Shown piece after piece: positions 46,629-61,777 of a DNA stretch of 64,000 nt (positions are counted from its first letter, which is position 1; every line of letters begins with the position of its first letter). The position numbers were made by a program, and so were the translations under genes. Where the stretch lies: assembly GCA_040255845.1 (NCBI GenBank), contig JBDZVU010000005.1, forward strand, positions 9,301 to 73,300, in the 5' to 3' direction. The notes below the pieces were generated by a model. That model searched no databases. It was not told the origin of the DNA and saw nothing but the letters and a program-made list of their open reading frames with translations. This DNA is from Nitrospiraceae bacterium (GTDB taxonomy: Bacteria; Nitrospirota; Nitrospiria; Nitrospirales; Nitrospiraceae).

Positions 46629-46640
46629 CCATGATCTCGC

Positions 46641-46715: not shown

Positions 46716-46802
46716 CTCCTCCTCGCCTGCCGAACCCTCCTGCCATCCGCCGAACAGTGCAACGGCACGGGCGTGACCTAGGTGGTCCGTCCTGCGGTAA
46801 AA

Positions 46803-46831
46803 TTGACCGCGGTTCAACGCGGTGTTAGAAT
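46803..46831 (+). promoter_or_regulatory. sigma70 promoter (extended -10) of hpnH
   Basis: TTGACC (46803-46808), 17 nt ending in TGT, TAGAAT (46826-46831). The 5' UTR carries a 7-bp hairpin CGGCTGC-cga-GCAGCCG. Confidence 0.55.
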
Positions 46832-46921
46832 CCGTCAAATTTTTACCAGCTTCAGGTTCGGCTGCCGAGCAGCCGCTCGATATAGTTCTCAGCCCACAGA
46901 TTAGCCAGGAAGGAGACCGGG

Positions 46922-47938
46922 ATGGCCGTACCGCTTTCCCAGATGTATACAGTGACGAAGTATGTGCTCACGCAGAAACTCAAGGGCGTACAGCGCTACC
47001 CCCTCGTGCTGATGCTCGAGCCCCTCTTCCGGTGCAACCTAGCCTGCGCGGGGTGCGGCAAGATCCAATACCCTGATCACGTCTTGGATCGCCGCTTGAC
47101 GCCGGAACAATGCTGGGCCGCAGCCGAGGAATGCGGCGCCCCGATCGTCAGCATTCCAGGAGGCGAACCGCTGATTCATCCCGACATGGCGACCATCGTC
47201 AAAGGCTTGGTGGCCCGCAAGCGGTACGTTTACCTCTGCACCAACGCCATCCTGCTCGAGCGCAAGCTGGATGAGTACGAACCCTCGAAATATCTGACCT
47301 TCAGCGTGCACATGGACGGATTGCGCGACGAGCATGATCTGGCCGTGTGCCGGGACGGCGTCTACGACATCGCGGTCCGGGCCATCAAGGTGGCGCTCAA
47401 GCGCGGGCACCGCGTCACGACGAACACGACGTTGTTCGACGACGCGAACCCAGAGCGGGTCCGGGCCTTTTTCGACGAAATGATGGCGTTGGGCGTCGAA
47501 GGCATGATGATTTCTCCGGGATACAGCTATCAAAAGGCGCCTGATCAACAGCATTTTTTGAAGCGCGAGCGGACTCGGGAGCTCTTCTCCAGAATCTTGA
47601 GCCGGCCCAAGCGATCCTGGCAGTTCAATCAGTCTCCTCTGTTCCTTGATTTTCTGATGGGGCGACGGGACTATCAGTGCACGCCGTGGGGCAATCCCAC
47701 CTACAACGTCTTCGGCTGGCAGAAGCCGTGCTATCTGCTGCAGGAAGGGTACGCCAAGACCTTCAAGGAATTGATGGACACCACACCGTGGGACCGCTAC
47801 GGAAGCAGCAAGAACGAGAAGTGCGCGGATTGCATGGTGCACTGCGGCTACGAGGCGTCCGCGGTGGAAGATACCTTCGGCACCCTGTCCGGCTTCAGCC
47901 GGACCGTGAAGCTGACCCTCCTTCCCACTTCCCGGTAG
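46922..47938 (+). CDS. hpnH: Adenosyl-hopene transferase HpnH (radical SAM)
   Basis: Radical-SAM motif CNLACAGCGKIQYP. 338 aa. AGGAAGGAG RBS. Confidence 0.85.
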   Translation: MAVPLSQMYTVTKYVLTQKLKGVQRYPLVLMLEPLFRCNLACAGCGKIQYPDHVLDRRLTPEQCWAAAEECGAPIVSIPGGEPLIHPDMATIVKGLVARKRYVYLCTNAILLERKLDEYEPSKYLTFSVHMDGLRDEHDLAVCRDGVYDIAVRAIKVALKRGHRVTTNTTLFDDANPERVRAFFDEMMALGVEGMMISPGYSYQKAPDQQHFLKRERTRELFSRILSRPKRSWQFNQSPLFLDFLMGRRDYQCTPWGNPTYNVFGWQKPCYLLQEGYAKTFKELMDTTPWDRYGSSKNEKCADCMVHCGYEASAVEDTFGTLSGFSRTVKLTLLPTSR

Positions 47939-48341: not shown

Positions 48342-48555
48342 CCCGCGCACACCCGATCCAAGGCCCCACACCTTGGTCCCACCGGTCTTTTCCCTTTTCC
48401 CGGACACCGCTGTTTCCGCCGTCCGCTGATTGACAAAGCATAGGGGCTGTGTTAATTAGGTCGGCCTTAAAATCGGGCGGCCACAGGCGTGAACGGGGCT
48501 TGTGCGGCGGCAATGCACTTATTGGCTTGGCTGAGTGAGATGGGAATTCATAAGG

Positions 48556-49080
48556 ATGTTCGGTCTTCGGGGGGCCGCTGCGGCGGCGTCCATCGGAGCC
48601 TTCGTCGCACTCTTCATTCCCGCCCCGTTGTTCGCCACGCACGAGGCTGATCACCGATTCACGGTCGAGGGCTTTGTCTGCGGCCCGGATGGTCGAGGCA
48701 GGCCTAACGTCGAAGTGCTTGTGAAGGATACGCGCATCTCCTACGGTCAGACCGTCAAGACCGATGGAGATGGTTATTACAAGGCGACCTTTCATTTGCA
48801 TAACGACAACCTGGGTGATCCGCTGTACGTCGAGGCAGAGGGGGCGCAGCAGCAGCATAAAGTCCAATTCGATCCGAAAGACCTGGAGAGCGAGCGGAAG
48901 ATTCAGGTCAATTTCGGGAGCGGCTGTGTCCATGATCCCAGCGCGCCTCCGATGTGGGCCTGGTCGATGCTTGGAGCCGTGGCTGTTGGCGTTGGAGGAT
49001 TCGTCGGAGCGAAGGTGCTGCGAGCCCGGAGGAAACACGCTGCGAAACGGGAGAAGGGGCACGGAAAGAAAAGGAAGTAA
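48556..49080 (+). CDS. Hypothetical exported protein: signal peptide, beta-sandwich (carboxypeptidase-regulatory-like) domain, C-terminal TM anchor and Lys/Arg tail
   Basis: Signal peptide ...IPAPLFA-THEADH. Pattern GFVCGPDGRGRPNVEVLVKD...TDGDGYYKATF. TM WAWSMLGAVAVGVGGFVGA. Start ATG 48556 or GTG 48535. Confidence 0.55.
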   Translation: MFGLRGAAAAASIGAFVALFIPAPLFATHEADHRFTVEGFVCGPDGRGRPNVEVLVKDTRISYGQTVKTDGDGYYKATFHLHNDNLGDPLYVEAEGAQQQHKVQFDPKDLESERKIQVNFGSGCVHDPSAPPMWAWSMLGAVAVGVGGFVGAKVLRARRKHAAKREKGHGKKRK

Positions 49081-49188
49081 ACACAGCGGTCCGTGGGGCA
49101 AAGCGGAGCAAGCACCTCGCCGGATCCGTGGGTCGATCGAGAAGGCGTGGGAGCACAGTCTGTGGCCTCATGGGACGAATCAATCTCG

Positions 49189-49234
49189 GCGCTTTTGCAT
49201 AGAGGGGCGGCCCTCTGGCAAAAGCGTCTTTTTT
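49189..49234 (+). terminator. Strong intrinsic terminator separating the upstream gene from the respiratory cluster
   Basis: Outer stem CGCTTTTGC/GCAAAAGCG, inner stem AGAGGG-gcgg-CCCTCT, followed by T6 (49229-49234). Confidence 0.75.
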
Positions 49235-49314
49235 CTGCCTGCGGCCTGACAGTCGAATCAGGAGCAGCAGAGTAGTCGGCGCGGCTTACGATCAAGAAAG
49301 GACGGAGACTTTTT

Positions 49315-49872
49315 ATGAAGCGGATGAACGTGCAAGGGCTGGTGTCGGCGTTGGGAATGCTCGGTATGGGATGCGTTCTGGCGGCCTGCGGCGGCGAGGG
49401 TGGAGGAGAAGGGCCGGTGGTGCCCCCGCCCCCGGCTCCTGCGGAATACGCCGACAAGCATATGCCGGCCGGCTGGTGGACGGACGCCGGGAAGATGGAA
49501 GAAGGCCGAAAGTTGTTCATCGGCGAAACGAACCCCGACGTCAACTGCGCCAGCTGCCACGGCAAGGATGGCAAGCCGGTGAAGGCCGGCGCGCGCGACT
49601 TCCGGGTGTCCGAGCGGATGAAGCTCTATAGCGATTCGGTGTGGTTCTGGCGCATATCGGAAGGCGTGCCCAACACCAAGATGAAGGCATGGAAGACCAA
49701 GCTGTCCGAGGAGGACCGCTGGAAGCTGGTGCTGTTCGAGCGCAGTTTTGGGCTGGCCGGCAAAGGATACGACCCGGCCAAGAAGGAATGGGTCGATGCC
49801 GCCAGTGTCGCGGCCGCTCCTGCGGCGACTCCGGCTGCGGCGCCCACCGCTTCGGCCGAAGCTGGCAAGTAA
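49315..49872 (+). CDS. Monoheme c-type cytochrome lipoprotein
   Basis: Lipobox VLAACG, heme site CASCH, Met-ligand region NTKMKAW, Ala/Pro-rich C-terminal tail. Confidence 0.8.
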   Translation: MKRMNVQGLVSALGMLGMGCVLAACGGEGGGEGPVVPPPPAPAEYADKHMPAGWWTDAGKMEEGRKLFIGETNPDVNCASCHGKDGKPVKAGARDFRVSERMKLYSDSVWFWRISEGVPNTKMKAWKTKLSEEDRWKLVLFERSFGLAGKGYDPAKKEWVDAASVAAAPAATPAAAPTASAEAGK

Positions 49873-49911
49873 GCGGGTTCACATCACTGTGAGGAGGGGC
49901 GGCGAAACATC

Positions 49912-51615
49912 ATGAAAACCTGGCAGCGCAGTCTCTTGACTCTCTGTGCGCTTCTCGCGGTCTGCGGAGGGGTCGCCTACGCGCAGGCGCCCGGTGCTCC
50001 TCCTGTCGAGTTCCCCTACACGGGAAACCGGACCGCGGTGTGGATCGTCGCCCAGCTGCACATTCTGTTCGCGGGATTCATCCTCGGCGCGCCGATTTTC
50101 GTCGTCATCTCGGAGTGGCTGGGATACCGCAAGCAGGATCCGCGGTACGACCGTCTGGCGAAGGAAGTCACCAAAGTGACCGTCATTCTTTACAGCATGA
50201 CGGCGCTGACGGGGGGCCTCTTCATTTTCGTCCTGCTCGCCACCTATCCGCAGTTTACCACCTGGCTCATCAATCACTTTTTCCTGGTGTTCGCGGTCGT
50301 GTACCCGCTGCTGTTCATCGGCGAAACGATCGTGCTGTACATGTATTTCTATACGTGGGATGCGTGGAAAGGCGCAAAGAAGGCCCGCCACATCGCGCTC
50401 GGCGTGCTACTCAACCTTATCGGCACCATCACGCTGTTCGTGATCGACGGCCCGACCTCCTTCATGAACACCCCAGTGAAGGCCGAAGGCATCTCTCCTG
50501 CAGAATTTCTTGCCACTGCCACGCTCTGGGACAAGATCTTCAACTATAGCTGGATGCCGCTCAACCTCCATCGGCTGGTGGGCAACGTCACCTTCGGCGG
50601 GTTCGTGGCCGGGCTGATCGCCGCCTACATGTACATGGGCTCGAGCAAGGAGGAAGAGCGGTCGTACTACGACTGGATGGGTTTCGTCGGCAACATGATC
50701 GGAGTCGGGGCGCTGCTGTTCCTACCGTTCATGGGCTACCTGCTCGCCTACGAGCTCTGTGACTACGATGCCTCCATCTGCCCTTACATGATGGCGGACC
50801 AGCTGTCGATGTTCTTCGAAATGCAGGGGGCGATGATCGGCCTGATCTTCCTCGCCAGCAACTACTACATCTGGCTGAGCATGAAACGGATCGAGGGGGT
50901 CGAGAAGGTCCGAATGACGATTCTCGCCCCGATCGTCATGGTGCTGCTGCCGATCGTCATGACGAAGGTCCTGACCGACTACCCGGCGCCTGATCCCACC
51001 TCGCTGGTCTTCCTGCTCCCAATGCTGTTGGCGCCAGTGCTCCTGGGCCGCTTTATCCCGGTCACTGTTTCCTCCAGCACGGTCATCAAGATCGGCTTTC
51101 TCATGGTGGTCGTGGGTAACGCGATTTGGATGACGCCTCACGGCTTCGTCCCGACGGGCGCCAAGCTGGTGGCGGAGTTGGAGCTTCCGTCGGACTGGAA
51201 CTGGCTTGCGCTGATGCCGGCCAAAAATTCAGCCGCCTTCACGCTGGTCTTCGTGACGGTGGTGAACTATGTCATTTACAACCGGGCCGTCACGCAAGGG
51301 ACCATCGTGTGGGGCAAGATCGATTTCGCCTCTCAATTCGTGCTGATCTTCCTGGCGTTCAGCGCCATTTGGACCATGGGCCTCATGGGAGCGGTCCGGT
51401 CGCTGCTGCGGAAGTACTTCCATACGTACAATTTGCTCCCGGACTTCACGGCCGAATCGTTCACGCCGACTCTGGCCTATTCCGCCTGGTGGATTACAGC
51501 GATTACCGTCATTTTCTACGCGGTGGTCAGCTTCGCCATTTTGGTCACGCTGCGCGCCGCGTATCCGAAGGACCATGCGCCGGAGGGCAGCCCGGTTCCC
51601 GCCGGAGCCAAGTAG
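49912..51615 (+). CDS. Cytochrome bd-like protein, paralog 1 (CydA-related polytopic heme protein; no CydB partner)
   Basis: Signal-peptide-like N-terminus (LLAVCGGVAYAQA). CydA-like helix 1 VWIVAQLHILFAGFILGAPIF. About 14 predicted TM segments. Confidence 0.7.
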   Translation: MKTWQRSLLTLCALLAVCGGVAYAQAPGAPPVEFPYTGNRTAVWIVAQLHILFAGFILGAPIFVVISEWLGYRKQDPRYDRLAKEVTKVTVILYSMTALTGGLFIFVLLATYPQFTTWLINHFFLVFAVVYPLLFIGETIVLYMYFYTWDAWKGAKKARHIALGVLLNLIGTITLFVIDGPTSFMNTPVKAEGISPAEFLATATLWDKIFNYSWMPLNLHRLVGNVTFGGFVAGLIAAYMYMGSSKEEERSYYDWMGFVGNMIGVGALLFLPFMGYLLAYELCDYDASICPYMMADQLSMFFEMQGAMIGLIFLASNYYIWLSMKRIEGVEKVRMTILAPIVMVLLPIVMTKVLTDYPAPDPTSLVFLLPMLLAPVLLGRFIPVTVSSSTVIKIGFLMVVVGNAIWMTPHGFVPTGAKLVAELELPSDWNWLALMPAKNSAAFTLVFVTVVNYVIYNRAVTQGTIVWGKIDFASQFVLIFLAFSAIWTMGLMGAVRSLLRKYFHTYNLLPDFTAESFTPTLAYSAWWITAITVIFYAVVSFAILVTLRAAYPKDHAPEGSPVPAGAK

Positions 51616-51664
51616 GAACGAACCAGCGCACGCCTGGGGCGTGGACGAGAACAGAGGGAGTGTC

Positions 51665-52468
51665 ATGGGCAAAGCAATGCTAAAGATCGTGGTGGGGTTG
51701 GCCGTCGGGGCCGGTCTGTGGGTCCTCACGATGGCGCTTGAGTTTCCGCCCGTGTTCCGGTGGCTCTTCTTCGCATACGCCATCCTGGGCACCGCCGTGT
51801 TCCTCATGCTCGATGCACCAAGCATGAAGCCGCTCAGCGGCGTCAAGGCGCTCACCGCCTTGTTGGCCTTTTACGTCGTCCTCTGTACGGTGTACATCGC
51901 CGGGGCGTCGCTCTGGCCGCAGTACGATCCCGAGGACGAGAAGGAAAAAATCGAAAAGATTCTGGCGCCCAAACGGAAGGCCACCGAACAGGGAAAAGCC
52001 GAAGAGCTGCTCGCCCGTGCCAAGGCCCTCGACGAACAAGCCAAGGCTCTGGCCGAGCGCATCAAGGCCCTGGGCGGTGATCAGGCTCCCGCAGCCCAAG
52101 CGGCAGGAGGCGCAGGTGCCCCTCCCGCCACGACGGCGGCCGGGGGCGACATTCTCAAAATCGGCGAGGATCAGTGGCAGCTTCAGGAGTGCTACAACTG
52201 TCACAAGCTGCGGGGTGAAGGTGGCAAAAAGCGGGGTCCGGAGCTCGACAACATCGGCAATCTCCTCTCTCCGGAGGAAATCGCCCGGAAGATCCTCGAC
52301 CCGAAATCGTACAAGGCCGAGGGGTTCGATACGGAGTATGAGAAGGGCAAAATGCCCGACAAGTACAAGGATCTGATGGAGCCGAAGGACGTCGAAGCGT
52401 TGGCCGTCTGGCTCGCCACCTTCAAAAACACGTCGGTGAATACGCCCAAGCCCATCAAGATGAAATAG
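51665..52468 (+). CDS. Membrane-anchored monoheme cytochrome c (3 TM, coiled coil, cyt c domain)
   Basis: Three N-terminal hydrophobic helices, Glu/Lys/Ala-rich linker, heme site CYNCH, Met ligand region KGKMPDKY. GAGGGAG RBS before ATG 51665. Confidence 0.75.
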   Translation: MGKAMLKIVVGLAVGAGLWVLTMALEFPPVFRWLFFAYAILGTAVFLMLDAPSMKPLSGVKALTALLAFYVVLCTVYIAGASLWPQYDPEDEKEKIEKILAPKRKATEQGKAEELLARAKALDEQAKALAERIKALGGDQAPAAQAAGGAGAPPATTAAGGDILKIGEDQWQLQECYNCHKLRGEGGKKRGPELDNIGNLLSPEEIARKILDPKSYKAEGFDTEYEKGKMPDKYKDLMEPKDVEALAVWLATFKNTSVNTPKPIKMK

Positions 52469-53407
52469 ATGATGACGCAGCCCAAGTTGAAATCCAAGGT
52501 CCGCTGCAAGGACCGCGAAATCGGCGAAGTATCCAAGGTCATCGTCGACCCGTTGTCGCACGAGATCAGCCATATCGTCGTCTCGATGAACGGCAGCGGA
52601 GAGCGCCAGGTTCCGATGGGCCAGGTGGAGTCCGTGACGGACGATCTCGTGGCCTTGCGCACCCTCTCGGCCGAGCTGCTGGCCCTTCCTCCGTTCAAGC
52701 GCGACGACTACGTCACGACCCATGAGGTCGAAATCGCGCACCTGGAGGAAAAGGTTCACGTAGCTCCGGGCGAAGTGCTCGTGCCGCTGCCCGAGCTGGA
52801 GAAGTCCGTGAAGCGGCGGACCTTCTTCATGAATCTCACCCATGTGATCGGCTTCCTCATCGGCCTTCCCATTGCCTTCCCGGTTCTGCGGTACCTCATG
52901 AAGCCGATGTACGCGCCGTTCGACAACAGCTGGCTGAAGATCGGCAACGTCAGCAAGATCAAGCAGGAAGATGTCGGCGTCCAGTTCAAGTACAAGCGCA
53001 CAGTCAAGGAAGCCTACATGCCGGAGGCCGAGATCGAGAAGAACGTCTGGATCCTCAAGGCCACGCCGGCCGTGCTGGACAAGGTGTACCAGGGAAAGGA
53101 CATGGAGTTTCGCGACGCCGCCGGCAAGACCGTGTGGACCAACAAGAAGGACATGCCGTACGTGGCGTTCAGCGGAAAGTGCCCGCATCTGGGCTGCGGC
53201 TACAAGTGGCGTCAGCATAAGCTGCTGGGCCAGGTATTCCTGTGCCCCTGCCATCTGAGCATCTACGACGCCGCCGGGAAGGTGCTGGACGGGCCTGCGC
53301 CGCGCCCCCTCGACGCCCTGCCTATTAAGGTATCGGCGGGCGGCGACGTGGAAATCATCGATATGGAATTCAAGGCCGGTACAAAAACCCAAATCCGGAT
53401 CATCTGA
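52469..53407 (+). CDS. Rieske 2Fe-2S protein with an N-terminal PRC-barrel-like extension
   Basis: Rieske boxes CPHLGCG and CPCHLSIYD. Internal twin-arginine KRRTFFMNL plus TM at about residue 114. N-terminal 110 aa resemble a PRC barrel (DREIGEVSKVIVDPLSHEISHIVVS). Confidence 0.8.
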   Translation: MMTQPKLKSKVRCKDREIGEVSKVIVDPLSHEISHIVVSMNGSGERQVPMGQVESVTDDLVALRTLSAELLALPPFKRDDYVTTHEVEIAHLEEKVHVAPGEVLVPLPELEKSVKRRTFFMNLTHVIGFLIGLPIAFPVLRYLMKPMYAPFDNSWLKIGNVSKIKQEDVGVQFKYKRTVKEAYMPEAEIEKNVWILKATPAVLDKVYQGKDMEFRDAAGKTVWTNKKDMPYVAFSGKCPHLGCGYKWRQHKLLGQVFLCPCHLSIYDAAGKVLDGPAPRPLDALPIKVSAGGDVEIIDMEFKAGTKTQIRII

Positions 53408-53412
53408 TCACC

Positions 53413-54525
53413 ATGCAACCAGCGCCCACGACCAGTCCCGAACCGACCGTCCTCGAAAAAGTCATTGCATTCGTCGACGAGCGCGTCGGCCTTAAAACGA
53501 TCCAAGCCAAGATGCTGAACGAGCCGGTGCCTGGCGGCTCGCGCTGGGCCTATATCTTCGGCTCGGTCCTGCTGTTCATCTTCATCATGCAGGCGGTGAC
53601 GGGCATCCTGCTGATGTTCTACTACGTGCCCACGGCCGATCACGCGTATGCCAGCACGCAATACATCATCCACGACGTCGATTACGGCTGGTTCCTGCTG
53701 AGCTATCACTTCTGGGGATCGTCCGCGATGGTGGTCTGCGTGTTCGCCCACATGTCGCAGGTGTTTTTGTGGGGGGCGTACAAGAAGCCCCGGGAAATGA
53801 TCTGGCTCGTCGGGCTCGCCTTGTTCGGCATCGTCATGGGTTTCGGCTTCACCGGCTATCTGCTCCCCTGGGATCAGCGGGCCTATTGGGCCACCACGGT
53901 CGGTGTGGAGATCATGGACAAGACCCCGCTTCTCGGGGATTTCATGGCGCGGTTCCTCAAGGGCGGTCCCACGCCCGGGCAAATGACGCTGAGCCGGTTT
54001 TTCGTCATCCACGTCATGATTTTGCCGGCGGCCCTCATGGGGTTGGCCGGGCTACACCTGTTCCTGTTCCGTACGGCCGGACCGGCCGGTCCCTTTCGTG
54101 GGACTCCGGAGGAACTCAAGGCCAAGACGGACTATTTCTTCCCCCGTCAAGTCTGGAAGGACATCGTCGGCATGGTCACCGTCTTTCTGGGCATCTGCAC
54201 CCTTGCCTTTTGGGAGCCGGTGGTGCTGCTGGAGGAAGCGACGCCCGATCCTGGCGATTACCATCCCGAGCCGGAATGGTACTTTCTCTTCCTCTTCCAG
54301 TTGCTGCGGCTGAAGATTTTCTCCGGTGAGTTCGGGCAGTTTCTTGGGGCGATCGCGCTGCCCGGGGCTTTCATGGCCCTCCTCGCGGCGCTGCCCTTCA
54401 TCGACCGCGACCCTGAACGCAATATTTTCAAGCGCCCGGTCGCCCTCATAGGCTGGATCGTGGTCATGACGACGATTCTCATCTTTACCGTGTCCGCCAT
54501 TATCAACCGGGAATTCTTGGATTGA
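53413..54525 (+). CDS. Cytochrome b (unsplit b6 plus subunit IV type)
   Basis: Helix B His pair 13 residues apart (YHFWG...FAHM). Helix D pair 14 residues apart (VIHVM...GLHLF). Qo motif PEWYFLFLFQLLR. Confidence 0.85.
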   Translation: MQPAPTTSPEPTVLEKVIAFVDERVGLKTIQAKMLNEPVPGGSRWAYIFGSVLLFIFIMQAVTGILLMFYYVPTADHAYASTQYIIHDVDYGWFLLSYHFWGSSAMVVCVFAHMSQVFLWGAYKKPREMIWLVGLALFGIVMGFGFTGYLLPWDQRAYWATTVGVEIMDKTPLLGDFMARFLKGGPTPGQMTLSRFFVIHVMILPAALMGLAGLHLFLFRTAGPAGPFRGTPEELKAKTDYFFPRQVWKDIVGMVTVFLGICTLAFWEPVVLLEEATPDPGDYHPEPEWYFLFLFQLLRLKIFSGEFGQFLGAIALPGAFMALLAALPFIDRDPERNIFKRPVALIGWIVVMTTILIFTVSAIINREFLD

Positions 54526-54559
54526 CGCGCCTGAGGCGCCGGCAGGAACACTGACTATC

Positions 54560-55522
54560 ATGACGGATCGCGCACCTCTCTCGCCCCTGAAACTCGGCCT
54601 GAACGTCCTGTGGTCCGCCTTTTGGACCGGATTCCCGATCAAGCTCGCATTTGCCCTCCTCTTTATGGCGCTGGGCATGATCCACTTCGAGGCTCGGCTG
54701 GGCCTCGGGTTTGTGATGGTCCTGGCCAGTCCCATCACCGTCTTTGCCATGCCGATTCTGATGATGCTCGGCTCGCATTTCGGCGAAGGCGCGGGGCTGG
54801 GGTTGCTGTTCCTGCTGTGCATCCCCATCGACATCTGGGCCATGGGGGTCGTCGCGAAAACGTTGTTCCTCGAACGGCTGCACCTGGAGCCTCCGGACGG
54901 GATCGGCTTTTCCCTGTGGTGGAAGAGCGCCGTGACCGGCGCCCTCTACTTGCCCGTCCTGTGGATGATCGTAAGCACCGTCACGGAAACCGCCATTGCC
55001 ATCAGCCATTCGATCTTCGAGTTGGAGATTTTTCACGGCCTACCCGTTGCCGAAAAAATCAGCATAGAACTGACCTTGTGGGGCGGCGTCTCCGCCACCG
55101 TGCTTATCATCCTGCTGGTGGTCGGCGTGTCACTGATCGGGCGTCTCGTGCGAAGCGCCGCTCAGAACGCCGCCCCGGCTTCCGATAATTATCAACGTCT
55201 CGTGACGCGCTGGGATCTCATGCGCGTCCCGGCGGACCAGGGGCTGATGCTGACCGCGATGACGGGCGCCGGCGTGGTGCTCTCGGTGTTGTTCTGGGCC
55301 GCCTTGCCTGCCAGTACGCCGCATCCGCACGAGTGCTGCAAGCCCCTGGAAGTGAAGCGGCAGCCGCCGTTCAAACCGATCGATGCGTTGAACCGGGGAG
55401 AACGGACCCTCGCGCAGCTGGCGGCGCAAGTGGAGGCCATCGAAAAGCAACGGGCCGAAGAGGAAGCCGCCAAGGACAAGCACAAATCGGGAAAAGGGAA
55501 ATCCGCCGAACCGAAGCCTTGA
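54560..55522 (+). CDS. Orphan polytopic membrane protein with an HPHECC motif and a charged C-terminal tail
   Basis: About 6 hydrophobic helices. STPHPHECCKP at residues 252-262 (nt 55322-55339). Coiled, Lys-rich C-terminus. I recognise no family. Confidence 0.55.
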   Translation: MTDRAPLSPLKLGLNVLWSAFWTGFPIKLAFALLFMALGMIHFEARLGLGFVMVLASPITVFAMPILMMLGSHFGEGAGLGLLFLLCIPIDIWAMGVVAKTLFLERLHLEPPDGIGFSLWWKSAVTGALYLPVLWMIVSTVTETAIAISHSIFELEIFHGLPVAEKISIELTLWGGVSATVLIILLVVGVSLIGRLVRSAAQNAAPASDNYQRLVTRWDLMRVPADQGLMLTAMTGAGVVLSVLFWAALPASTPHPHECCKPLEVKRQPPFKPIDALNRGERTLAQLAAQVEAIEKQRAEEEAAKDKHKSGKGKSAEPKP

Positions 55523-55655
55523 CGCGCGCCGATTCGTCCGGCCGCGGGTGACGCGCACTGTCTTGGAGAATCGGCAGGCGACTGAAACAGATGGCCATGA
55601 CACCCGCAGGAGACGACAGCGGGCGGCCCGGCATCCTGATGAAGGGGTGAGATTC

Positions 55656-57500
55656 ATGATGCACCAGACCAATCAAGGACGTATTCGCGGAGCCGCGGCG
55701 ACGCCGCTCGCTGTTCTCGCGTTGACCGCCGCCGCTCTGCTGGCCCTGCCCTCGCTGGGCCTCGCCGCCGACGCCGGTTCCGGCACCGCGACTGCCTACC
55801 GGGACATTCCCGGGATCGGCAGCCGCAACCTGGTGTGGATCATCGCGCAGTTGCATCTCCTGCTCGCCGGGTTTGTTCTGGGCGTGCCGATCTTTGCGTG
55901 GCTGTGCGAAGTCGTGGGGTGGAAAACAGGCGAAAAGCGCTACGACAAGCTCGCGAAGGAATTCACCAAGCTGCTGAGCTCCTCATACGCGACGACGGCC
56001 TTATTCGGCGGCATCCTCCTCTTCCTCCTGATCGGCTTTTATCCCAAGCTGATGGCCTATCTGACGGACATCTTCTTTCCGTCTTTCCTCGTGTATTGTC
56101 TGCTCTTCCTGCTCGAGACCGCCACGCTGTACCTCTATTGGTACGGATGGGACGCCATGCAGGACGGCGGCAAAAAGACCTTCCACATTTTCCTGGGCTT
56201 TCTCCTCAACGTGTTTGCCTTCTTTATCATGATCGTCCCGAACAGTTGGGCGACGTTCCAAGCGAGTCCCGTCGTCATCGCGGAGGGGACCGATCTGCAG
56301 CGGGCCTGGGCGGCGACATGGAATCCCACGTGGTGGCCGGTCAATATTCACCGGTTGATCGCCAACGTGGTGCTCGGCGGGTACATCTGCGGCGCCTATG
56401 CCGGCATTCGGTACCTGTCCGCCAGGGCGGCGGAAGAGCGCGAGCACTACGATTGGATGGGGTACGTCGGCAATTTCATCGGGGTGTTCGGGTTGTTGCC
56501 GCTGCCGTTCGCCGGCTATTGGCTGATGCGTGAGATCTACCAGTACAACCAGCAGATGGGGATCACGCTGATGGGCGGCTTCCTGTCCTGGCTGTTCATT
56601 CTGCAAGCCATGCTGATCGGGGTGCTGTTCCTCGGCTCGAACTACTATTTCTGGCTGGGCATCACGCACCGCATTCCCGGCAGTGAGATCAAGTACCGAC
56701 GGCCCATCCTCGCCATGCTGGTCATTCTGCTCCTTTGTTTAGGGGTCTGGATGACGCCGCACTCACTGGTGGCGAGCTTGGAAGAAGCCCGGAAGATGGG
56801 CGGCACGCACCATCCGCTGCTCGGCGTCTTTGGCGTCATGTCGGCCAAGATGACGGTGTCCAACCTCATGATTTTGGTCACGTTCATGAGCTTCATTATG
56901 TACTGGCGCGCGGGCAAGGAAGAGACCGCAACCTGGGCGCGCCTGGCGAAAGCCGTGATGGGCGGCGTGCTGGTGATCGCCGGGATCGTAGTCGTGGTTC
57001 TGGGCGTCTGGGGGTACTTCGTTCCAGCCATCATCCGGATCAATTACTTCTCCACCTCGCAAGTCGGCATCGTGCTGTTCGTCATGCTGACCATCACGCC
57101 GTTGACGGCCCTGTTGCTGAAGAGTGCCCGGACGACGACAGAAATGGTGTGGGGCCGGATGCCGCCGCGTGCGGGCTATGCCCTCGTGCTGAACGCCATC
57201 ATGGTCATTTTGCTCATGACGCTGATGGGCTATGCCCGGTCCTCGTCCCGCGTGCACTGGCATATCTACGGCGTGATGCGCGATTCGTCCCAGTACGCGT
57301 TTTCTCCCGCGCTCGGCTACGCGGCCGCCTTTATGGCGCTGAACACCTTCTTCTTCTGTTTGCTCGTGGCGTTCATCTTCTGGGTGGCCACGATGGGCGA
57401 CAAGGGGAAGGCCGGCCATGGGGCTCCGGTCAAGGGAGACCTCGGAACGGCGGCGTTGCCGGCCATGGCGGGCGGCGCACCTGAGCAGGGCGCAAAGTAA
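55656..57500 (+). CDS. Cytochrome bd-like protein, paralog 2 (His-enriched; candidate non-canonical terminal oxidase)
   Basis: Paralogous to 49912-51615 (VWIIAQLHLLLAGFVLGVPIF). Signal-peptide-like N-terminus. Has extra His motifs (THRIPG, GGTHHPLLG, VHWHIYG) that paralog 1 lacks. ATG 55656 chosen. Confidence 0.7.
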   Translation: MMHQTNQGRIRGAAATPLAVLALTAAALLALPSLGLAADAGSGTATAYRDIPGIGSRNLVWIIAQLHLLLAGFVLGVPIFAWLCEVVGWKTGEKRYDKLAKEFTKLLSSSYATTALFGGILLFLLIGFYPKLMAYLTDIFFPSFLVYCLLFLLETATLYLYWYGWDAMQDGGKKTFHIFLGFLLNVFAFFIMIVPNSWATFQASPVVIAEGTDLQRAWAATWNPTWWPVNIHRLIANVVLGGYICGAYAGIRYLSARAAEEREHYDWMGYVGNFIGVFGLLPLPFAGYWLMREIYQYNQQMGITLMGGFLSWLFILQAMLIGVLFLGSNYYFWLGITHRIPGSEIKYRRPILAMLVILLLCLGVWMTPHSLVASLEEARKMGGTHHPLLGVFGVMSAKMTVSNLMILVTFMSFIMYWRAGKEETATWARLAKAVMGGVLVIAGIVVVVLGVWGYFVPAIIRINYFSTSQVGIVLFVMLTITPLTALLLKSARTTTEMVWGRMPPRAGYALVLNAIMVILLMTLMGYARSSSRVHWHIYGVMRDSSQYAFSPALGYAAAFMALNTFFFCLLVAFIFWVATMGDKGKAGHGAPVKGDLGTAALPAMAGGAPEQGAK

Positions 57501-57578
57501 AGGATCGAATGTTGAGCTTGTAGTGTTGAGTTGGCGGCACACCAACACTAAACACCAATCACTACACACCGGGGTCTT

Positions 57579-58208
57579 ATGAGTGAAGTCGTCAAGCTGC
57601 AGTTGATCGGCCTTTCGGTCGTCGGCACCGGAGTCATTATCCTGCTCTTCATTAGGGCGCAATTCGTTCGTGTCATCGGGTTCGTCGCCATCGTGCTCGG
57701 TCTATTTTCCTTGGTGGCGCTCGCGGTGCCGCAGATGGCGTCGCTTCCCCCGGCAGAGGAGAGCATCGACATCGCCAGCATCAAGACGCCGGCCGACATG
57801 GCGGCCATCGGTCAGAAGATCTTCTTCAGCAAGGGACAATGCGCCCTCTGCCACTCCATCGGGCCGAGTGAGTCCGCACGGTGTCCGGATCTGAAAGGTA
57901 TCGGCGCCAAACTCCGGCGGGAATTCATCTTCGAGAGCCTGACGCAGCCTCAGGCCTACATTTACCTGGACTATCGGCATGAGGGCCCGCCCAAGGAGTA
58001 TCCGGCCCGCATGCCCTACATCAACAAGAACCCGATCGGTCTCTCCAAGAACGAAATCTTGTCCGTGATCGCCTTCTTGCAGCAGATGAGCGGAGAGCCG
58101 ATTTCAGTCAGCCCGTCTGAGCTGGAGATGCCATCGCAACCGCCGGCGCCGCCGGTGAAGGCCGCGGACGCGGAGTCTGGCCCCGTCGCTGTGGCGCACG
58201 CGCGCTGA
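57579..58208 (+). CDS. Membrane-anchored monoheme cytochrome c (2 TM)
   Basis: Two N-terminal TM helices, heme site CALCH, Met ligand region ARMPYI. Confidence 0.75.
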   Translation: MSEVVKLQLIGLSVVGTGVIILLFIRAQFVRVIGFVAIVLGLFSLVALAVPQMASLPPAEESIDIASIKTPADMAAIGQKIFFSKGQCALCHSIGPSESARCPDLKGIGAKLRREFIFESLTQPQAYIYLDYRHEGPPKEYPARMPYINKNPIGLSKNEILSVIAFLQQMSGEPISVSPSELEMPSQPPAPPVKAADAESGPVAVAHAR

Positions 58209-58217
58209 GGAGGAACT

Positions 58218-58937
58218 ATGGGTGGGCCGTTAGTCAAACCGGTTATCTTGATGGTCGTTATCTATTTGATTCTGAAATTCATCGTGCCCAATATCCCCGG
58301 GTCTGCACCGCTCCCATCCAGCCTCATTTTCCTGTACCTCATGCTGACGGCCACGGGGATCGTTATTTTTGCCACTCTCAGTGGAGAATCCAAAGATGCC
58401 TTTTGGGGACCGATCCAGCGATTTCTAACCGGCGAAGGCATCGGCGCCCTGCAAACCGCGCGGTATGCCGTTCTCCTGTTGTTCCCGATTCTGGTGGGGT
58501 GGCAGACCTTTGGCAGCACGGCGCCCAGCGATCAGCCGCCAGCTGAAAACCGAACGATCCACCCCGCTCCTCCGGGGGAATATACCGGCCTGGCCAATCC
58601 CGTCCCGAAGACGCCCGAAAATATCATGCAGGGCAAGGGATTCTATGCGGCGTTTTGCTCGCCCTGCCATGGCGGAAATTTCGACGGCAAAGGACCGGCG
58701 GCCCGCGGATTCAATCCGCCGCCGGCGAACTTCGCCGATCCCACGACGATTGCGATGTTGCAGGAGAGCTACCTCTTCTGGCGCATCAAGAAAGGCGGGG
58801 TCGGGTTGCCGATCGAAGGCATGCCATGGAAGTCCGCGATGCCGCGGTGGGAAGTTGAGCTGCCGGACGAGTGGATCTGGAAAATCATCATGGGTGAGTA
58901 CGACGGAGCCCACCAGTCGCCGCGAACCTGGGAATAG
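58218..58937 (+). CDS. Membrane-anchored monoheme cytochrome c (3 TM)
   Basis: Three TM helices, heme site CSPCH, SAMPRW. The cytochrome domain is homologous to the lipoprotein cytochrome at 49315 (FWRIKKGG versus FWRISEG). Confidence 0.75.
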   Translation: MGGPLVKPVILMVVIYLILKFIVPNIPGSAPLPSSLIFLYLMLTATGIVIFATLSGESKDAFWGPIQRFLTGEGIGALQTARYAVLLLFPILVGWQTFGSTAPSDQPPAENRTIHPAPPGEYTGLANPVPKTPENIMQGKGFYAAFCSPCHGGNFDGKGPAARGFNPPPANFADPTTIAMLQESYLFWRIKKGGVGLPIEGMPWKSAMPRWEVELPDEWIWKIIMGEYDGAHQSPRTWE

Positions 58938-58996
58938 GTCTGAGCGGCGCGGAAGGCAACGAGCCCTGCGCTTTGCGAGAAAGTGAAGAGGCAACT

Positions 58997-59821
58997 ATGG
59001 CGTACTGCAGACAACGGTCTCTAAACACGGCGGTCGGTGCCGTGCTGGTCCTTGGGCTGGCCACCGTGATGCCCGCACAGGCGCAGGAAAGCGTATCGGT
59101 GAGGGCCAATCTGGTGACCGGAACCTTGCCGGCCGACGATCCCAATGCCGCCGCCTGGAGCAGCGTTCCGCCTGCCCAGTTCCCGCTCTCGCCGCAAGTG
59201 CACTGGCAGAATCGCATTCAAGAAGTCACGGTGAAGGACGTCAAGGTGCGCGCCCTCCACGACGGGACGCAGGTCGCGATCATGCTCGAATATGAAGACC
59301 CCACCGAGGATCCCGACGATGCGGCGGCGCTTGAATTCATGGTCGGGGACAAGAAGGCGCACTTTGCGCATGGGCAGCCGATGCTCCAGGTGGAAGGCGG
59401 CCCGGTGAATATTTGGTACTGGAAAAATAAAGAGAGCAAGGCGGTCGACATGAATGCCCAGGGCTTCGGTACCTTGAAAGTCCAGGAGCACCAGGACGTG
59501 AAAGCCAAGGGAGCGTACGCGAACGGGACGTGGAAGGTCGTATTCAGCCGTCCGCTCGCGACCGAGCATCCGGAGGCCGACACGCAGATCAAGCCCGGCG
59601 AGTTCATCAACATCGCGTTCGCCATCTGGGACGGAAAGAAGGATGCGAGCGGGGAGCTCCGGGAGAAGGGATCGCAAAAGGCGGTCTCCTCCTGGTGGTA
59701 TTTCCGCGCCGAACCGCCTCCCGACTATTCGCCCTACCTCTATGCGGTGCTGGCCGTCGGGTTGGCCGCGGGCTTTCAGTTCGTGTTGATCCGCAAGCTG
59801 AAGAAAGGGCAGACAGCATGA
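58997..59821 (+). CDS. EbdC/NxrC-like (EB_dh, DOMON-like) heme b domain protein with signal peptide and C-terminal TM anchor
   Basis: Signal peptide ...VMPAQA-QE. Pattern VKVRALHDGTQVAIMLEYEDPTED...IWYWK...WKVVFSRPL...IAFAIWDG. C-terminal TM YLYAVLAVGLAAGFQFVLI. Confidence 0.6.
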   Translation: MAYCRQRSLNTAVGAVLVLGLATVMPAQAQESVSVRANLVTGTLPADDPNAAAWSSVPPAQFPLSPQVHWQNRIQEVTVKDVKVRALHDGTQVAIMLEYEDPTEDPDDAAALEFMVGDKKAHFAHGQPMLQVEGGPVNIWYWKNKESKAVDMNAQGFGTLKVQEHQDVKAKGAYANGTWKVVFSRPLATEHPEADTQIKPGEFINIAFAIWDGKKDASGELREKGSQKAVSSWWYFRAEPPPDYSPYLYAVLAVGLAAGFQFVLIRKLKKGQTA

Positions 59822-60819
59822 AGGCGGCGAGGCTTCAGGTATGGGGTGCCGTCACCGGCCTGATCGGGCTCTGGGCCATGGCGGCGGGCGGATGCGCCAG
59901 CGAGCAGCAGAAGAAGGGCCAAGAGCTGTACACCCACTACTGCATGCATTGCCATGGCGAAAGCGGGCGGCAAAACGAGGGCTTCAATTGGTCTTCGATG
60001 CCTGATCCGAAGCCCAAAGATCTGTCCAACAAGTCCGAGATGGGCACCTTCAATGATGAGGAAATCTTCAATACCATCTCGCGCGACATGAAGGATACCA
60101 GCCCCGACGGGGACAAGATTGGCGACGACGAATTCGCCGTTCCCACCATGCCGACCTTTAAGTACACCCTGTCAGAAGAGGAGATCTGGGCCATCGTCGC
60201 GCATGTGCGCAGCCTGCATGGGATGAAGCTCCAGTTCAACGTCGAAGGCCGAAAGAAGGAGCTGGAAGAAGCGCACCAGGCGGCGCAACGAAAGTTCGAG
60301 GAAGCGAAGCAGGCCTACGAAGCCGCCGAAAAGAAAGCCAGCGATGAAGCCGATGCGAAAGGCGTCGAAGTGGATGAGTCCGTCTATGCCAAGGAGCAGG
60401 CGACGATGGTCGCGGCCAAGAAAGAGCTGGATGCGTCCCAAGCGGCACTCGTGAATTTCTCCACGCGTCCCGGCAAGGGCGTGACCGTGCCGAGACCCGA
60501 ACTCACGTTGGCGGCCGACCAGGTGGCGAAGCAGGCGGAGTTGGGGAAGCGTCTCTACACCAACAAATATGGGTGCAACGGGTGCCATGCGATCGGGGGA
60601 GAAGGCGGCAAAGTCGGGCCGGCCTTGGACCGCGCGGGTTTCCGGCTCAACCCCACCTGGGTCTATCGCTGGATCAAGAATCCTCAAGCCATGAAACCGG
60701 AGACCCGCATGCCAGCCTTGGGGCTGAGCGACGCCGATGCGAAGGCCGTCACCATGTATCTGGGCACCCTGAACGCGGTGAAGACCGAGGAAGCGGCCGT
60801 CGACCAGCCGGCCAGCTGA
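59818..60819 (+). CDS. Diheme c-type cytochrome lipoprotein with a central coiled coil
   Basis: Lipobox MAAGGC. Heme sites CMHCH and CNGCH. ATGA overlap with the preceding gene. The ORF-track N-terminal extension (from 59530) is rejected. Confidence 0.8.
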   Translation: MKAARLQVWGAVTGLIGLWAMAAGGCASEQQKKGQELYTHYCMHCHGESGRQNEGFNWSSMPDPKPKDLSNKSEMGTFNDEEIFNTISRDMKDTSPDGDKIGDDEFAVPTMPTFKYTLSEEEIWAIVAHVRSLHGMKLQFNVEGRKKELEEAHQAAQRKFEEAKQAYEAAEKKASDEADAKGVEVDESVYAKEQATMVAAKKELDASQAALVNFSTRPGKGVTVPRPELTLAADQVAKQAELGKRLYTNKYGCNGCHAIGGEGGKVGPALDRAGFRLNPTWVYRWIKNPQAMKPETRMPALGLSDADAKAVTMYLGTLNAVKTEEAAVDQPAS

Positions 60820-60844
60820 CAACTCTTCCTCTTTCTGTGCTGTC

Positions 60845-60875
60845 CGCCCGGCCGGCCCCCCTCGCTGGCCGGGCG
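60845..60875. other. GC-rich hairpin between convergent genes (possible T-tract-less bidirectional terminator)
   Basis: 9-bp stem CGCCCGGCC/GGCCGGGCG (60845-60853 / 60867-60875) with a 13-nt loop. Confidence 0.4.
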
Positions 60876-60889
60876 TGACGTGGCCGACC

Positions 60890-61777
60890 TCACCAATACC
60901 CTGCAATCACCCCCAGCAAGATCGCGCACCCATACCAGACGTGGGATCGGAACATCGTAAAGGCCTGGGTGGCATCGACAGGCCGTCGCAGTCGTAGGCT
61001 TTGCCGGGCGAAAAGGACGGCAACGGCCGACAGCATCGCGTAAAAGGGCCACCCGATTTCCATTTGCCGTCCGGCTTCGGTCAGCAAGACCAGCATGGCG
61101 GTGAGCGCGGCCAAGACGGCCAGCCACGTCCAGGACCCGAAGAGCAGGGCCGAAGATTTCACGCCGATCCGGCGATCATCTTCCCGATCCTGGAGCGCGT
61201 AGATCGTATCGTATGCCACCGCCCACAGGACGGTCGCGCCGAACAGGAGCCAGGCCGGTGTCTCCAGCCTGCCCCGGACCGCAGTCCACGCCATCACCGT
61301 GCCCCATCCAAACGCCAGACCGAGCATGGCTTGTGGAATATCGAGCCACCGTTTCGAAAACGGATAGAGCCAGGCAAGAACGACCGCAACGGGAGCCAAC
61401 ATCCACACGGAGCGGTCAAGCAACAGCACCAGACCCGCAGCCGCAACGAGCAGGACGGCCAGCAGAGCGGCTGCCAGCCTGGCTGATACGGCTCCGGATG
61501 CCAACGGGCGTGATTTGGTTCGTGAGACTTGACGATCGAAGGATCGGTCGGCAAGGTCGTTCACGATCACCCCGGCGCTCCGCATGAGGAAGGACCCGAC
61601 CAGGAAAATGGCGATGAGCGACGGCGCCGGAGTGCCCTGTGCCGCGAGGCTCAATGCCCAGAGCGAGGGCAGCAAGAGCAGCGCGGTGCCGGTTTGGCTC
61701 CGAAGCCGAATGAGGTCGGCGAGCGCGGTCCAGGGGATGCCTCCCTCCCGGCCTCTCGCCGATGGAGAAATCGCCAT
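60890..61777 (-). CDS. ubiA: UbiA-family aromatic prenyltransferase (4-hydroxybenzoate polyprenyltransferase-like; a quinone-pathway MqnP-type role is possible)
   Basis: Motif NDLADRSFDRQVSRTKSRPLASG and a second Asp-rich motif YALQDREDDRRIG. Eight to nine TM helices. ATG 61777 chosen over the 384-aa ORF. Confidence 0.75.
   Translation of the reverse strand: MAISPSARGREGGIPWTALADLIRLRSQTGTALLLLPSLWALSLAAQGTPAPSLIAIFLVGSFLMRSAGVIVNDLADRSFDRQVSRTKSRPLASGAVSARLAAALLAVLLVAAAGLVLLLDRSVWMLAPVAVVLAWLYPFSKRWLDIPQAMLGLAFGWGTVMAWTAVRGRLETPAWLLFGATVLWAVAYDTIYALQDREDDRRIGVKSSALLFGSWTWLAVLAALTAMLVLLTEAGRQMEIGWPFYAMLSAVAVLFARQSLRLRRPVDATQAFTMFRSHVWYGCAILLGVIAGYW

Follow-up and report, generated by a model that had tools for sequence, protein, structure and literature searches.

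Two cytochrome bd-like proteins and a cytochrome b6-type complex in one Nitrospiraceae gene cluster: a known, still uncharacterised respiratory module as a candidate branch point of nitrite-oxidising electron transport

How do bacteria that live on nitrite reduce O2, and how do they drive its electrons uphill for CO2 fixation? No ecosystem, natural or engineered, is said to have more widespread nitrite oxidisers than Nitrospira, and in all Nitrospira genomes analysed a canonical haem-copper terminal oxidase is missing (Mundinger et al. 2019), so that both O2 reduction and the uphill transfer of electrons from nitrite (+430 mV) pose a real open question. The eleven-gene cluster described here, at positions 49315-60819 on the + strand of a 64 kb stretch of a Nitrospiraceae contig (hereafter the window), is the leading candidate for both. 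Judged by sequence and gene order, it is this genome's copy of the known 'CIII_1 / bd-like_1 / bd-like_2 / alt_NxrC_1' respiratory cluster of Nitrospira, so that a module already known, though still uncharacterised, has here been correctly found again. On balance we lean towards the reading that it encodes a branch point of the nitrite-oxidising electron transport chain. The cluster and its boundaries comprise the following features, in which classes A and B are the haem c domain classes defined below:

49188-49235, + strand: intrinsic terminator that ends the upstream gene (48535-49080) and bounds the cluster on its 5' side
49315-49872, + strand: g1, probable lipoprotein monohaem cytochrome c, class A (CcoP/Cytochrome_CBB3-like; PF13442, E 5.5e-8)
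49912-51615, + strand: g2, cytochrome bd-like protein 1 (bd-like_1 of N. moscoviensis; PF01654, E 3.8e-22)
51665-52468, + strand: g3, monohaem cytochrome c with three transmembrane (TM) segments and a coiled-coil linker, class B (PF00034, E 1.8e-8)
52469-53407, + strand: g4, Rieske 2Fe-2S protein, extended at its N terminus by a cytoplasmic PRC-barrel-like part and carrying a twin-arginine motif internally (PF00355, E 4e-9)
53413-54525, + strand: g5, cytochrome b of the fused b6 + subunit IV type (PF00033, E 1.5e-48; PF00032, E 1.5e-8; best NCBIfam match cytochrome b6)
54560-55522, + strand: g6, conserved orphan membrane protein restricted to Nitrospirales (about six helices and a C-terminal coiled coil)
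55656-57500, + strand: g7, cytochrome bd-like protein 2 (bd-like_2, the putative complex IV of N. moscoviensis; PF01654, E 1.4e-19)
57579-58208, + strand: g8, membrane-anchored monohaem cytochrome c, class B (PF00034, E 3.2e-7; CALCH at residue 88)
58218-58937, + strand: g9, monohaem cytochrome c with three hydrophobic (TM) segments, class A (PF13442, E 2.4e-7; CSPCH at residue 147)
58997-59821, + strand: g10, EB_dh/NxrC-like periplasmic haem b protein (alt_NxrC_1; PF09459, E 8.5e-26)
59818-60819, + strand: g11, probable lipoprotein dihaem cytochrome c, fused class A + B (PF00034 and PF13442, E about 5e-20, two stretches)
60839-60881, no strand assigned: GC-rich hairpin between the convergent g11 and a - strand UbiA gene, the 3' boundary of the cluster

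Gene content and numbering match NITMOv2_0731-0741 of N. moscoviensis, where alt_NxrC_1 has the same architecture, and Ca. N. defluvii (FP929003) shares all eleven genes, with their order and strand, at 50-92% protein identity (85% for g7), with the same HpnH and UbiA flanks; the species of Nitrospira considered here differs from both. The N. moscoviensis region has been described as comprising CIII_1 (a Rieske protein and cytochrome b only), bd-like_1, bd-like_2, alt_nxrC_1, two cytochrome c genes that stand between the last two and further cytochromes c, all strongly transcribed (Mundinger et al. 2019, PMC6606698), and later papers credit the identification of the cluster as a candidate to work from 2010 (Lucker 2010). 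A scan of one genome per species yielded 576 relatives of g7, and the eleven proteins and their neighbours were compared by tblastn with 80 fetched loci. The order and orientation g1-g11 recur in every Nitrospirales locus with enough flanking sequence, Ca. N. defluvii included, with HpnH upstream in all, UbiA downstream and the small gene before g1 in most; for the genes that evolve faster, some orthologs are no more than about 35-60% identical at the protein level. Uncultured Nitrospira sp. and N. lenta-like metagenome-assembled genomes (MAGs) supply the closest loci, and thousands of close relatives of g7 are annotated as Nitrospira or Nitrospirota, the best match (92% identical) being a 'Nitrospiraceae bacterium' MAG protein.

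Outside the Nitrospirales, six loci from Manganitrophaceae and Troglogloeales, three of them shorter than 10 kb, contain only g7-g8-g9-g10(-g11), lacking the Rieske/cytochrome b genes, g2 and g6, with a g1-like gene sometimes found 5' of the module. Two Nitrospirota/Troglogloeales MAG contigs carry the bd-like/cytochrome c/cytochrome c/EB_dh module in tandem with no adjacent Rieske/cytochrome b genes. The g7-g8-g9-g10 module corresponds to TO_1 of Ca. Manganitrophus, which consists of a clade I bd-like protein, two cytochromes c and a periplasmic cytochrome b, with g7 59-65% identical; unlike the cluster here, the fetched loci of TO_1 type (some of them short) have no adjacent Rieske/cytochrome b genes, g6 or bd-like 1, and are sometimes arranged in tandem. 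Paralogous modules have also been described elsewhere in Nitrospira, Nitrospina and anammox genomes (Mundinger et al. 2019; Lucker et al. 2013). Since the g7-g10(-g11) unit occurs without adjacent complex III genes and has such paralogs, the oxidase-like module is separable from complex III.

All eleven open reading frames (ORFs), g1 to g11, lie on the + strand between the conserved intrinsic terminator and the GC hairpin, and the G+C content at third codon positions (GC3) is 0.72-0.85 in each. The long antisense ORFs have a GC3 of 0.56-0.69, with the G+C content at first codon positions (GC1) raised to 0.77-0.82 in four out of five, and are therefore regarded as shadows of the + strand genes. 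Scans with Pfam and NCBIfam agree with the assignments of g1-g5 and g7-g11, g6 having no match. With the starts of g3, g7 and g10 placed behind Shine-Dalgarno-like sequences at 51665, 55656 and 58997, the intergenic gaps measure 0-133 nucleotides (nt), and the stop of g10 and the start of g11 share an ATGA at 59818. The upstream terminator forms an 18-pair interrupted hairpin (stem 49188-49228, -31.9 kcal/mol, z -3.8) followed by TTTTTT; its GCGCTTTTG...CAAAAGCG elements and T-run recur in 12 further Nitrospira loci, among which the inner stem varies in sequence but the outer stem and T-run do not. For the downstream hairpin the folding energies are -33.9 kcal/mol (+ strand, z -5.3) and -30.7 kcal/mol (- strand), and neither strand has a T-run. 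No match to the cydB, haem-copper oxidase or cytochrome c1/f families was found in the cluster with Pfam and NCBIfam, and none of cydAB, haem-copper oxidase, c1/f, nxrAB or molybdopterin genes was found among the 44 window ORFs scanned (not every ORF was scanned). A first-pass annotation, made from the DNA alone, had proposed eleven same-strand genes between a terminator and a GC hairpin, gaps of 0-133 nt with an ATGA overlap, the domain content and gene order given above, six haem c sites and the lack of cydB, haem-copper oxidase and c1/f genes. ORFs, GC3 and folding bear out this layout, the spacing is correct once starts are placed by Shine-Dalgarno sequences, the family scans agree with the domains (the PRC match being weak) and with the absences, and exactly six CxxCH motifs were counted. 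Its view that the genes are co-encoded likewise holds, as the order is kept in every Nitrospirales locus with enough flank and no long spacer is conserved.

The gene that ends with the conserved terminator (48535-49080), directly 5' of the cluster, encodes a small protein that combines a signal or anchor sequence and a weak match to a CarboxypepD_reg-like domain with a C-terminal TM helix and basic tail, and that is kept in most Nitrospirales loci at 30-71% identity.

The proposed site of O2 reduction lies in the bd-like proteins. Both g2 and g7 match Cyt_bd_oxida_I above its gathering score, over profile positions 3-240 (g7 3-241) of 418, and they are 35% identical to each other over their full length. 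The only relative of g7 found by sequence in the PDB (phmmer) is the mycobacterial CydA 9r2g_A (E 5.6e-6, g7 residues 64-251). Equivalents of four CydA residues are identified from that alignment and are given here in what is taken to be the E. coli numbering (His19, His186, Glu99, Glu107). The His19 equivalent, H67 in g7 and H50 in g2, is present in 79 of 80 and 53 of 54 orthologs, respectively, and the same counts apply to the equivalent of the haem b558 ligand His186 (g7 H232, g2 H220); the Glu107 equivalent is kept in 77 of 80 orthologs of g7 (E154) and in 48 of 54 of g2 (E138). Six residues separate the Glu99 and Glu107 equivalents, as in the aligned 9r2g CydA. Beyond these positions the paralogs diverge in their histidines: g7 has nine (67, 177, 232, 264, 369, 385, 386, 534, 536) that are kept in 79 of 80 orthologs, some of which come from Troglogloeales and Manganitrophaceae loci and are 59-65% identical, and orthologs of g2 keep four of the nine (H50, H160, H220, H504). 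Across 33 diverse full-length representatives of the family, H177 and H232 are nearly universal, H67 occurs in 28, H536 and H386 in 26 each, H369 in 22 and the Glu107 equivalent in 22, and the full set of nine is found in only two, presumably of the NIDE0901 type. A further metal (Cu) site, as suggested in the literature, would be in keeping with the extra histidines of g7.

As the Pfam match ends at profile position 240, g2 and g7 are read as lacking the Q-loop and the quinol-binding site. Beyond the His186 equivalent the sequence is hydrophobic and helical and has no match to PF01654 positions 241-418; in the paralogous bd-like protein of Nitrospina, the Q-loop is replaced by membrane helices (Lucker et al. 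2013). A hydropathy scan gives 11-12 TM segments, and a low-confidence AlphaFold2 (AF2) model of g7 (predicted local distance difference test, pLDDT, 51.5) about 14-15 long helices. With canonical CydAB (M. smegmatis 9r2g, E. coli bd-I) the proteins share homology over about 190 residues after the signal sequence and the equivalents of the haem-ligand histidines. In contrast to that enzyme, however, the cluster contains no cydB or cydX, its bd-like proteins have no Q-loop and no alignable Met393 region, and g7 has an estimated 14 or so TM helices in place of nine, extra invariant histidines and a donor that is presumably cytochrome c rather than quinol.

Bd-like proteins of this kind have been assigned to the OR-N family of the cytochrome bd superfamily (Murali, Gennis and Hemp 2021). 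With that family g2 and g7 share a CydA N-terminal core that keeps the His19, His186 and Glu107 equivalents, the lack of a Q-loop and quinol site, what seems to be a much larger number of TM helices than in CydA, the pairing of two paralogs (here about 35% identical) in one operon and the presence of alternative electron donors encoded alongside. His19 is kept in all cydA paralogs, and members of the types OR-N1 and OR-N2 have 14 TM helices, are up to 40% identical and sometimes share one operon (Murali et al. 2021). On the basis of synteny with Ca. N. defluvii and of literature placing the NIDE0901-like subunit in OR-N2, g2 is probably of the OR-N1 type and g7 probably of the NIDE0901/OR-N2 type.

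The candidate electron donors of these proteins are the c-type cytochromes that surround them, which together hold six CxxCH motifs, one each in g1, g3, g8 and g9 and two in g11. In g1 the motif is CASCH at residue 78, accompanied by an LAAC lipobox-like sequence, and NITMOv2_0731, which corresponds to it in N. moscoviensis, carries the annotation of a putative monohaem cytochrome c (Mundinger et al. 2019). The motif of g3 is CYNCH, in a protein with three hydrophobic segments, and g11 has CMHCH at 42 and CNGCH at 253 in two domains joined by a coiled-coil linker. Profile-profile comparison of the ortholog alignments (hhalign) sorts the haem c domains into two classes. Class A consists of g1, g9 and the N-terminal domain of g11 (g1-g9 97.8%, g1-g11N 98.1%, g9-g11N 97.0%), and class B, which carries the FixO/CcoO-like signature CxxCH...GGxxGPxL, of g3, g8 and the C-terminal domain of g11 (g3-g8 89.6%, g3-g11C 95.2%, g8-g11C 95.8%); the cross-class pairs g1-g3, g3-g9 and g8-g9 score about 1.5%. 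A value of 79% for g1-g8, over the N-terminal anchor and the CxxCH region, is regarded as spurious. Written by class, the cluster reads A-bd1-B, Rieske, cytochrome b, g6, bd2-B-A, EB_dh, fused A+B, and the orders A-bd1-B and bd2-B-A suggest that an ancestral [cytochrome c - bd-like - cytochrome c] unit was duplicated. The flanking of each oxidase-like gene by membrane-anchored class B and class A cytochromes c resembles CcoO (FixO) and CcoP of cbb3 oxidases, and the c-type cytochrome gene directly before the Rieske/cytochrome b genes follows what we take to be the qcrCAB order of actinobacteria. The catalytic subunit, unlike that of cbb3 oxidases or of actinobacterial III-IV supercomplexes, is no haem-copper oxidase, and the likeness is one of wiring logic only, the domain matches lying far under the family cut-offs. 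Genes for a System II cytochrome c biogenesis pathway, relevant to the six haem c sites, are found about 26 kb upstream (20184-23358) and comprise ResB, a CcsA/ResC-like Cytochrom_C_asm protein and a thioredoxin/AhpC-TSA-like protein.

Access to the quinone pool would be provided by g4 and g5. All 58 orthologs of g4 keep the Rieske boxes unchanged (CxHxGC and CxCH; C238/H240/C243 and C259/C261/H262). Likewise invariant is RR-x-F at 116-119, which stands behind a conserved N-terminal PRC-like domain of about 110 residues. The PRC match itself is weak (PF05239, E 6e-4, 20.1 bits against a cut-off of 21.2), and the protein measures 310-314 amino acids in 57 of the 58 orthologs. In g5, H99/H113 (x13), H200/H215 (x14, the b6-type spacing) and PEWY at 287-290 are invariant in all 61 orthologs. 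With the Rieske ligands, RR-x-F, the four haem b histidines and PEWY all invariant, the quinol-reactive complex looks functional as judged from these residues. A dedicated c1, f or dihaem c subunit was not found in the cluster, QcrC-like scores being 15-28 bits against a cut-off of 200. The stop of g3 abuts the start of g4, and g3 is a candidate stand-in for the missing c1/f subunit; more generally, it may be the c subunit either of bd-like 1 or of the Rieske/cytochrome b complex. Convergent to the cluster, on the - strand, lies a gene for a UbiA-family 4-hydroxybenzoate polyprenyltransferase (60890-61756, ORF to 62044; TIGR01474, 284.9 bits against a cut-off of 275.45), whose synteny is kept in nearly all Nitrospirales loci. 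It may catalyse the prenylation step of methyl-plastoquinone synthesis, beside the b6-type complex that would use the quinone.

The NxrC-like protein g10 has a signal peptide and a C-terminal TM anchor. It scores 91.9 bits against PF09459 (cut-off 33.3) and 116 bits against TIGR03477, under the cut-off of 169.85 of that model, and its relatives in the PDB (phmmer) are NxrC of Kuenenia (7b04_C, E 2.9e-16) and EbdC (2ivf_C, E 5.7e-15). M129 and K228, kept in 67 of 67 and 66 of 67 orthologs, respectively, stand at or near the haem b ligand positions. K228 aligns with the lysine of 'GQK' in Kuenenia NxrC, and the methionine falls at most three residues from Met108 of EbdC in a phmmer alignment with ambiguous gap placement. 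The haem b ligands of EbdC are taken here to be Met and Lys. The counterpart in N. moscoviensis, alt_nxrC_1, likewise has a signal peptide and one TM helix, at 30.5 kDa (Mundinger et al. 2019). A partner in NxrAB is not co-encoded, in that no molybdopterin or NxrB-type genes were found among the window ORFs scanned.

The least familiar component is g6, which has no sequence relative in Pfam, NCBIfam or the PDB (the best PDB match, E 0.048, is a coiled-coil artefact). In an AF2 model of moderate confidence (pLDDT 73), built from a 58-sequence alignment, some six helices lie in the membrane and the C terminus forms a coiled coil, and Foldseek found no significant match to it in the PDB (best E 0.97, TM-score at most 0.21). 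Homologs number 1027 when searched with this sequence and 471 with a divergent lineage-IV ortholog, all of them unnamed or 'hypothetical' and essentially all from Nitrospirales, and the gene always stands between cytochrome b and bd-like 2. In 58 diverse homologs, H73, E76, D91, E165, D219, R222, D226, H255 and H257 (the last two in a TPHPH motif) are invariant. The protein as a whole diverges more quickly than those encoded next to it, at 34-69% identity compared with 78-90% for g7, and lineage-IV orthologs lack about 30 residues of its N-terminal hydrophobic region. Its position and the invariant histidines make g6 a candidate accessory or bridging subunit. A 'CC' pair following TPHPHE was considered as a copper site and rejected; since only 56% of orthologs carry the pair, it is no core feature.

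The cluster is probably transcribed as one operon, given gaps of 0-133 nt, the ATGA overlap, the lack of any significant internal hairpin, the conserved upstream terminator and similar expression in N. moscoviensis. The five largest intergenic gaps fold no better than shuffled controls and thus offer no internal terminator or attenuator, and a terminator scanner returned weak matches inside genes (21, against 11.9 expected from shuffles). The spacer between g6 and g7 (55523-55655) measures 133 nt here and in one close relative and about 25 nt in most relatives, and it too folds no better than shuffled sequence. No sigma-70-type promoter was found by scanning the + strand 5' of g1, and an alignment of the upstream regions revealed no obvious conserved promoter motif besides the terminator and the Shine-Dalgarno sequence, AAAGGAG, which precedes g1 in most of twelve other Nitrospira loci. 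In N. moscoviensis, five genes of the region reach 2077 (NITMOv2_0731), 1166 (0732), 691 (0735), 815 (0737) and 725 (0740) reads per kilobase per million (RPKM), lying within about 3-fold of one another and all within the top ~240 by expression rank (Mundinger et al. 2019, PMC6606698, supplement). The gap, hairpin and spacer data fit a single transcription unit, short of proof.

What such a unit might do can be set out as a scheme in which we infer each electron-transfer step, the reduction of O2 and any physical association of the products. Electrons from periplasmic nitrite oxidoreductase (NXR) would enter via g10, the haem b protein anchored in the membrane, via the tethered c-type cytochromes or via both. 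Most would run downhill via the class B g8 and class A g9 to the nine-His g7, which has no quinol site and is the proposed place of O2 reduction. A minority would be sent uphill through g4/g5 acting in reverse, perhaps with g3 as the c subunit and g6 as an accessory, into the methyl-plastoquinone pool; the reduced pool would feed reverse electron transport for CO2 fixation, in which the electrons reach ferredoxin or NADH by way of complexes III and I. As for g2, which has a class A (g1) and a class B (g3) cytochrome of its own, it might be a non-catalytic partner of g7 in a CydAA'-like pair or a second, separate bd-like unit. The sites that this scheme needs are intact, namely the Rieske boxes, the cytochrome b histidines and PEWY, the Met and Lys of g10, six CxxCH motifs and the His19, His186 and Glu107 equivalents in g2 and g7. 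The assignment of O2 reduction to g7 is made by elimination, because some cultured Nitrospirales encode no other oxygen reductase (2025 Nitrospirales comparison) and canonical cydAB is barely transcribed during growth of N. moscoviensis on nitrite (Mundinger et al. 2019). In two cultured Nitrospira species no quinones other than methyl-plastoquinones were detected, and nitrite oxidisers depend on reverse electron transport (2025 quinone paper); reverse electron flow has been proposed for the paralogous module (Mundinger et al. 2019, PMC6606698).

Several points weigh against this branch-point reading or parts of it. We found no biochemical or structural data on any OR-N protein in the literature. 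The residue equivalent to Glu99 is a tyrosine in both paralogs (g7 Y147, g2 Y131), in which they differ from the OR-N family, and the AF2 model of g7, built from a 24-sequence alignment of sequences at least 78% identical plus the paralog, is too poor for site geometry (pLDDT 51.5, predicted TM-score 0.50). Transcription of alt_nxrC_1 in N. moscoviensis is about 25-fold under that of the main soluble nxrC (PMC6606698), which argues against a stoichiometric NXR subunit. A NIDE0901-like OR-N2 subunit and an OR-N1 CydA have been said probably to form a CydAA' terminal oxidase (2025 Nitrospirales comparison), yet an obligate g2-g7 heterodimer is weakened by the four genes that lie between g2 and g7, by the separate pair of cytochromes c that each of these two has and by g7-type genes that occur without a g2-type gene in other lineages (loci here; Murali et al. 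2021). Finally, modules of bd-like, NxrC-like and cytochrome c proteins occur in strictly anaerobic anammox bacteria (Mundinger 2019; Lucker 2013), which argues for an ancestral role other than O2 reduction.

This last point also supports an explanation in which the bd-like proteins are no oxygen reductases at all and serve instead as haem b modules that couple NXR or cytochrome c to quinone, as an 'alternative complex III', or that simply anchor NXR, O2 being reduced by another, so far unrecognised enzyme. The homologous anammox cluster of bd-like, alt-NxrC and cytochrome c genes has been linked to NXR in the literature, the alternative-complex-III interpretation was raised by Lucker et al. 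2013, conservation with CydA is limited to the N-terminal third, the Glu99 equivalent is a tyrosine and g2 keeps only four histidines. Against this stand the complete absence of canonical quinol-binding residues and the Q-loop, the lack of another oxidase candidate in some cultured Nitrospirales, the presence of the His19 equivalent in 28 and of the Glu107 equivalent in 22 of the 33 family representatives and the strong constraint on the nine-His pattern of g7 (79 of 80 orthologs). Furthermore, the cluster already holds a genuinely quinone-reactive pair in g4/g5, with PEWY, and a second quinone reductase would therefore be redundant. A non-oxidase role is judged improbable but real, and the branch point with g7 as O2 reductase remains the preferred reading.

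A different matter is whether the products work as one assembly. All eleven could form a single stable CIII-OR-N-NxrC supercomplex (CIII, complex III) that docks NXR and splits the electrons of nitrite between O2 and quinone. Strict co-linearity of the eleven genes across Nitrospirales lineages, tight spacing with translational coupling and similar transcript levels across the N. moscoviensis region are in keeping with it, as is the placement of g6 exactly between the CIII and oxidase genes and only in that context; moreover, every c-type cytochrome is membrane-tethered or lipid-anchored, which points to fixed wiring rather than a diffusible pool. Clustering, however, is no proof of association, and we found no complexome or structural data on the module in the literature; the g7-g10 module occurs without adjacent CIII in Troglogloeales and Manganitrophaceae and as a paralogous cluster in Nitrospira, and in the obligate III-IV supercomplexes that are known a dihaem c link suffices, with no need of two oxidase-like subunits. 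We hold the supercomplex to be unlikely, if somewhat less so than a non-oxidase role. The first-pass annotation had suggested one membrane supercomplex, a claim that goes beyond the data, as none show physical association and g7-g10(-g11) is found without adjacent complex III genes; nor is it new, since a CIII-CIV (complex III-complex IV) supercomplex with possible NXR interaction via alt_NxrC_1 was proposed by Mundinger et al. 2019 (PMC6606698). The same annotation was right that composition and function await biochemical proof, which papers from 2024 and 2025 still state: experimental confirmation of the bd-like oxidases is lacking (2024 Nitrospinota paper; 2025 quinone paper), and Nitrospira membrane complexes have been neither heterologously expressed nor genetically addressed (2025 quinone paper). 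A more elaborate version, which we consider a long shot, would be an obligate pseudo-symmetric machine, with two [class A cytochrome c - bd-like - class B cytochrome c] units around a b6-type core, joined by g6, whose H73, H255 and H257 might bind haem or a metal, splitting nitrite electrons between O2 and methyl-plastoquinone within one complex. If true, this would imply a coupling of downhill and uphill transfer that is assisted by proton-motive force or resembles bifurcation.

To what was known of the module, the locus adds one more ortholog, together with the haem-domain classes, the distribution of the histidines, the independence of the oxidase module and a description of g6; no mention of the two-class haem c arrangement or of the g6 properties was found in the literature on the cluster. 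These observations could guide the design of constructs and the assignment of subunits in cryo-EM and complexome work.

The remainder of the window holds further metabolic genes. At 742-13251 lies a reductive tricarboxylic acid (TCA) cycle block with two ATP-citrate lyase subunits, aconitase, a monomeric isocitrate dehydrogenase and both succinyl-CoA synthetase subunits, within which stands an orphan FAD-binding SdhA/NadB-like flavoprotein. Beyond the UbiA gene, at 61827-63890, a 687-amino-acid protein is encoded whose match to a caspase-like domain is weak (EACC1-associated type, E 1.5e-6, far under the cut-off) and which is conserved in lineage I/II loci only. An isoprenoid/hopanoid block at 31312-47938 contains IspH, an interposed SMC gene, squalene-hopene cyclase, PNP_UDP_1 (HpnG-like), MlaE, MlaC, Omp85, DXS, IspG and a radical-SAM/DUF3463 (HpnH-like) protein, and the adjacency of HpnH to the respiratory cluster is conserved across the Nitrospirales.

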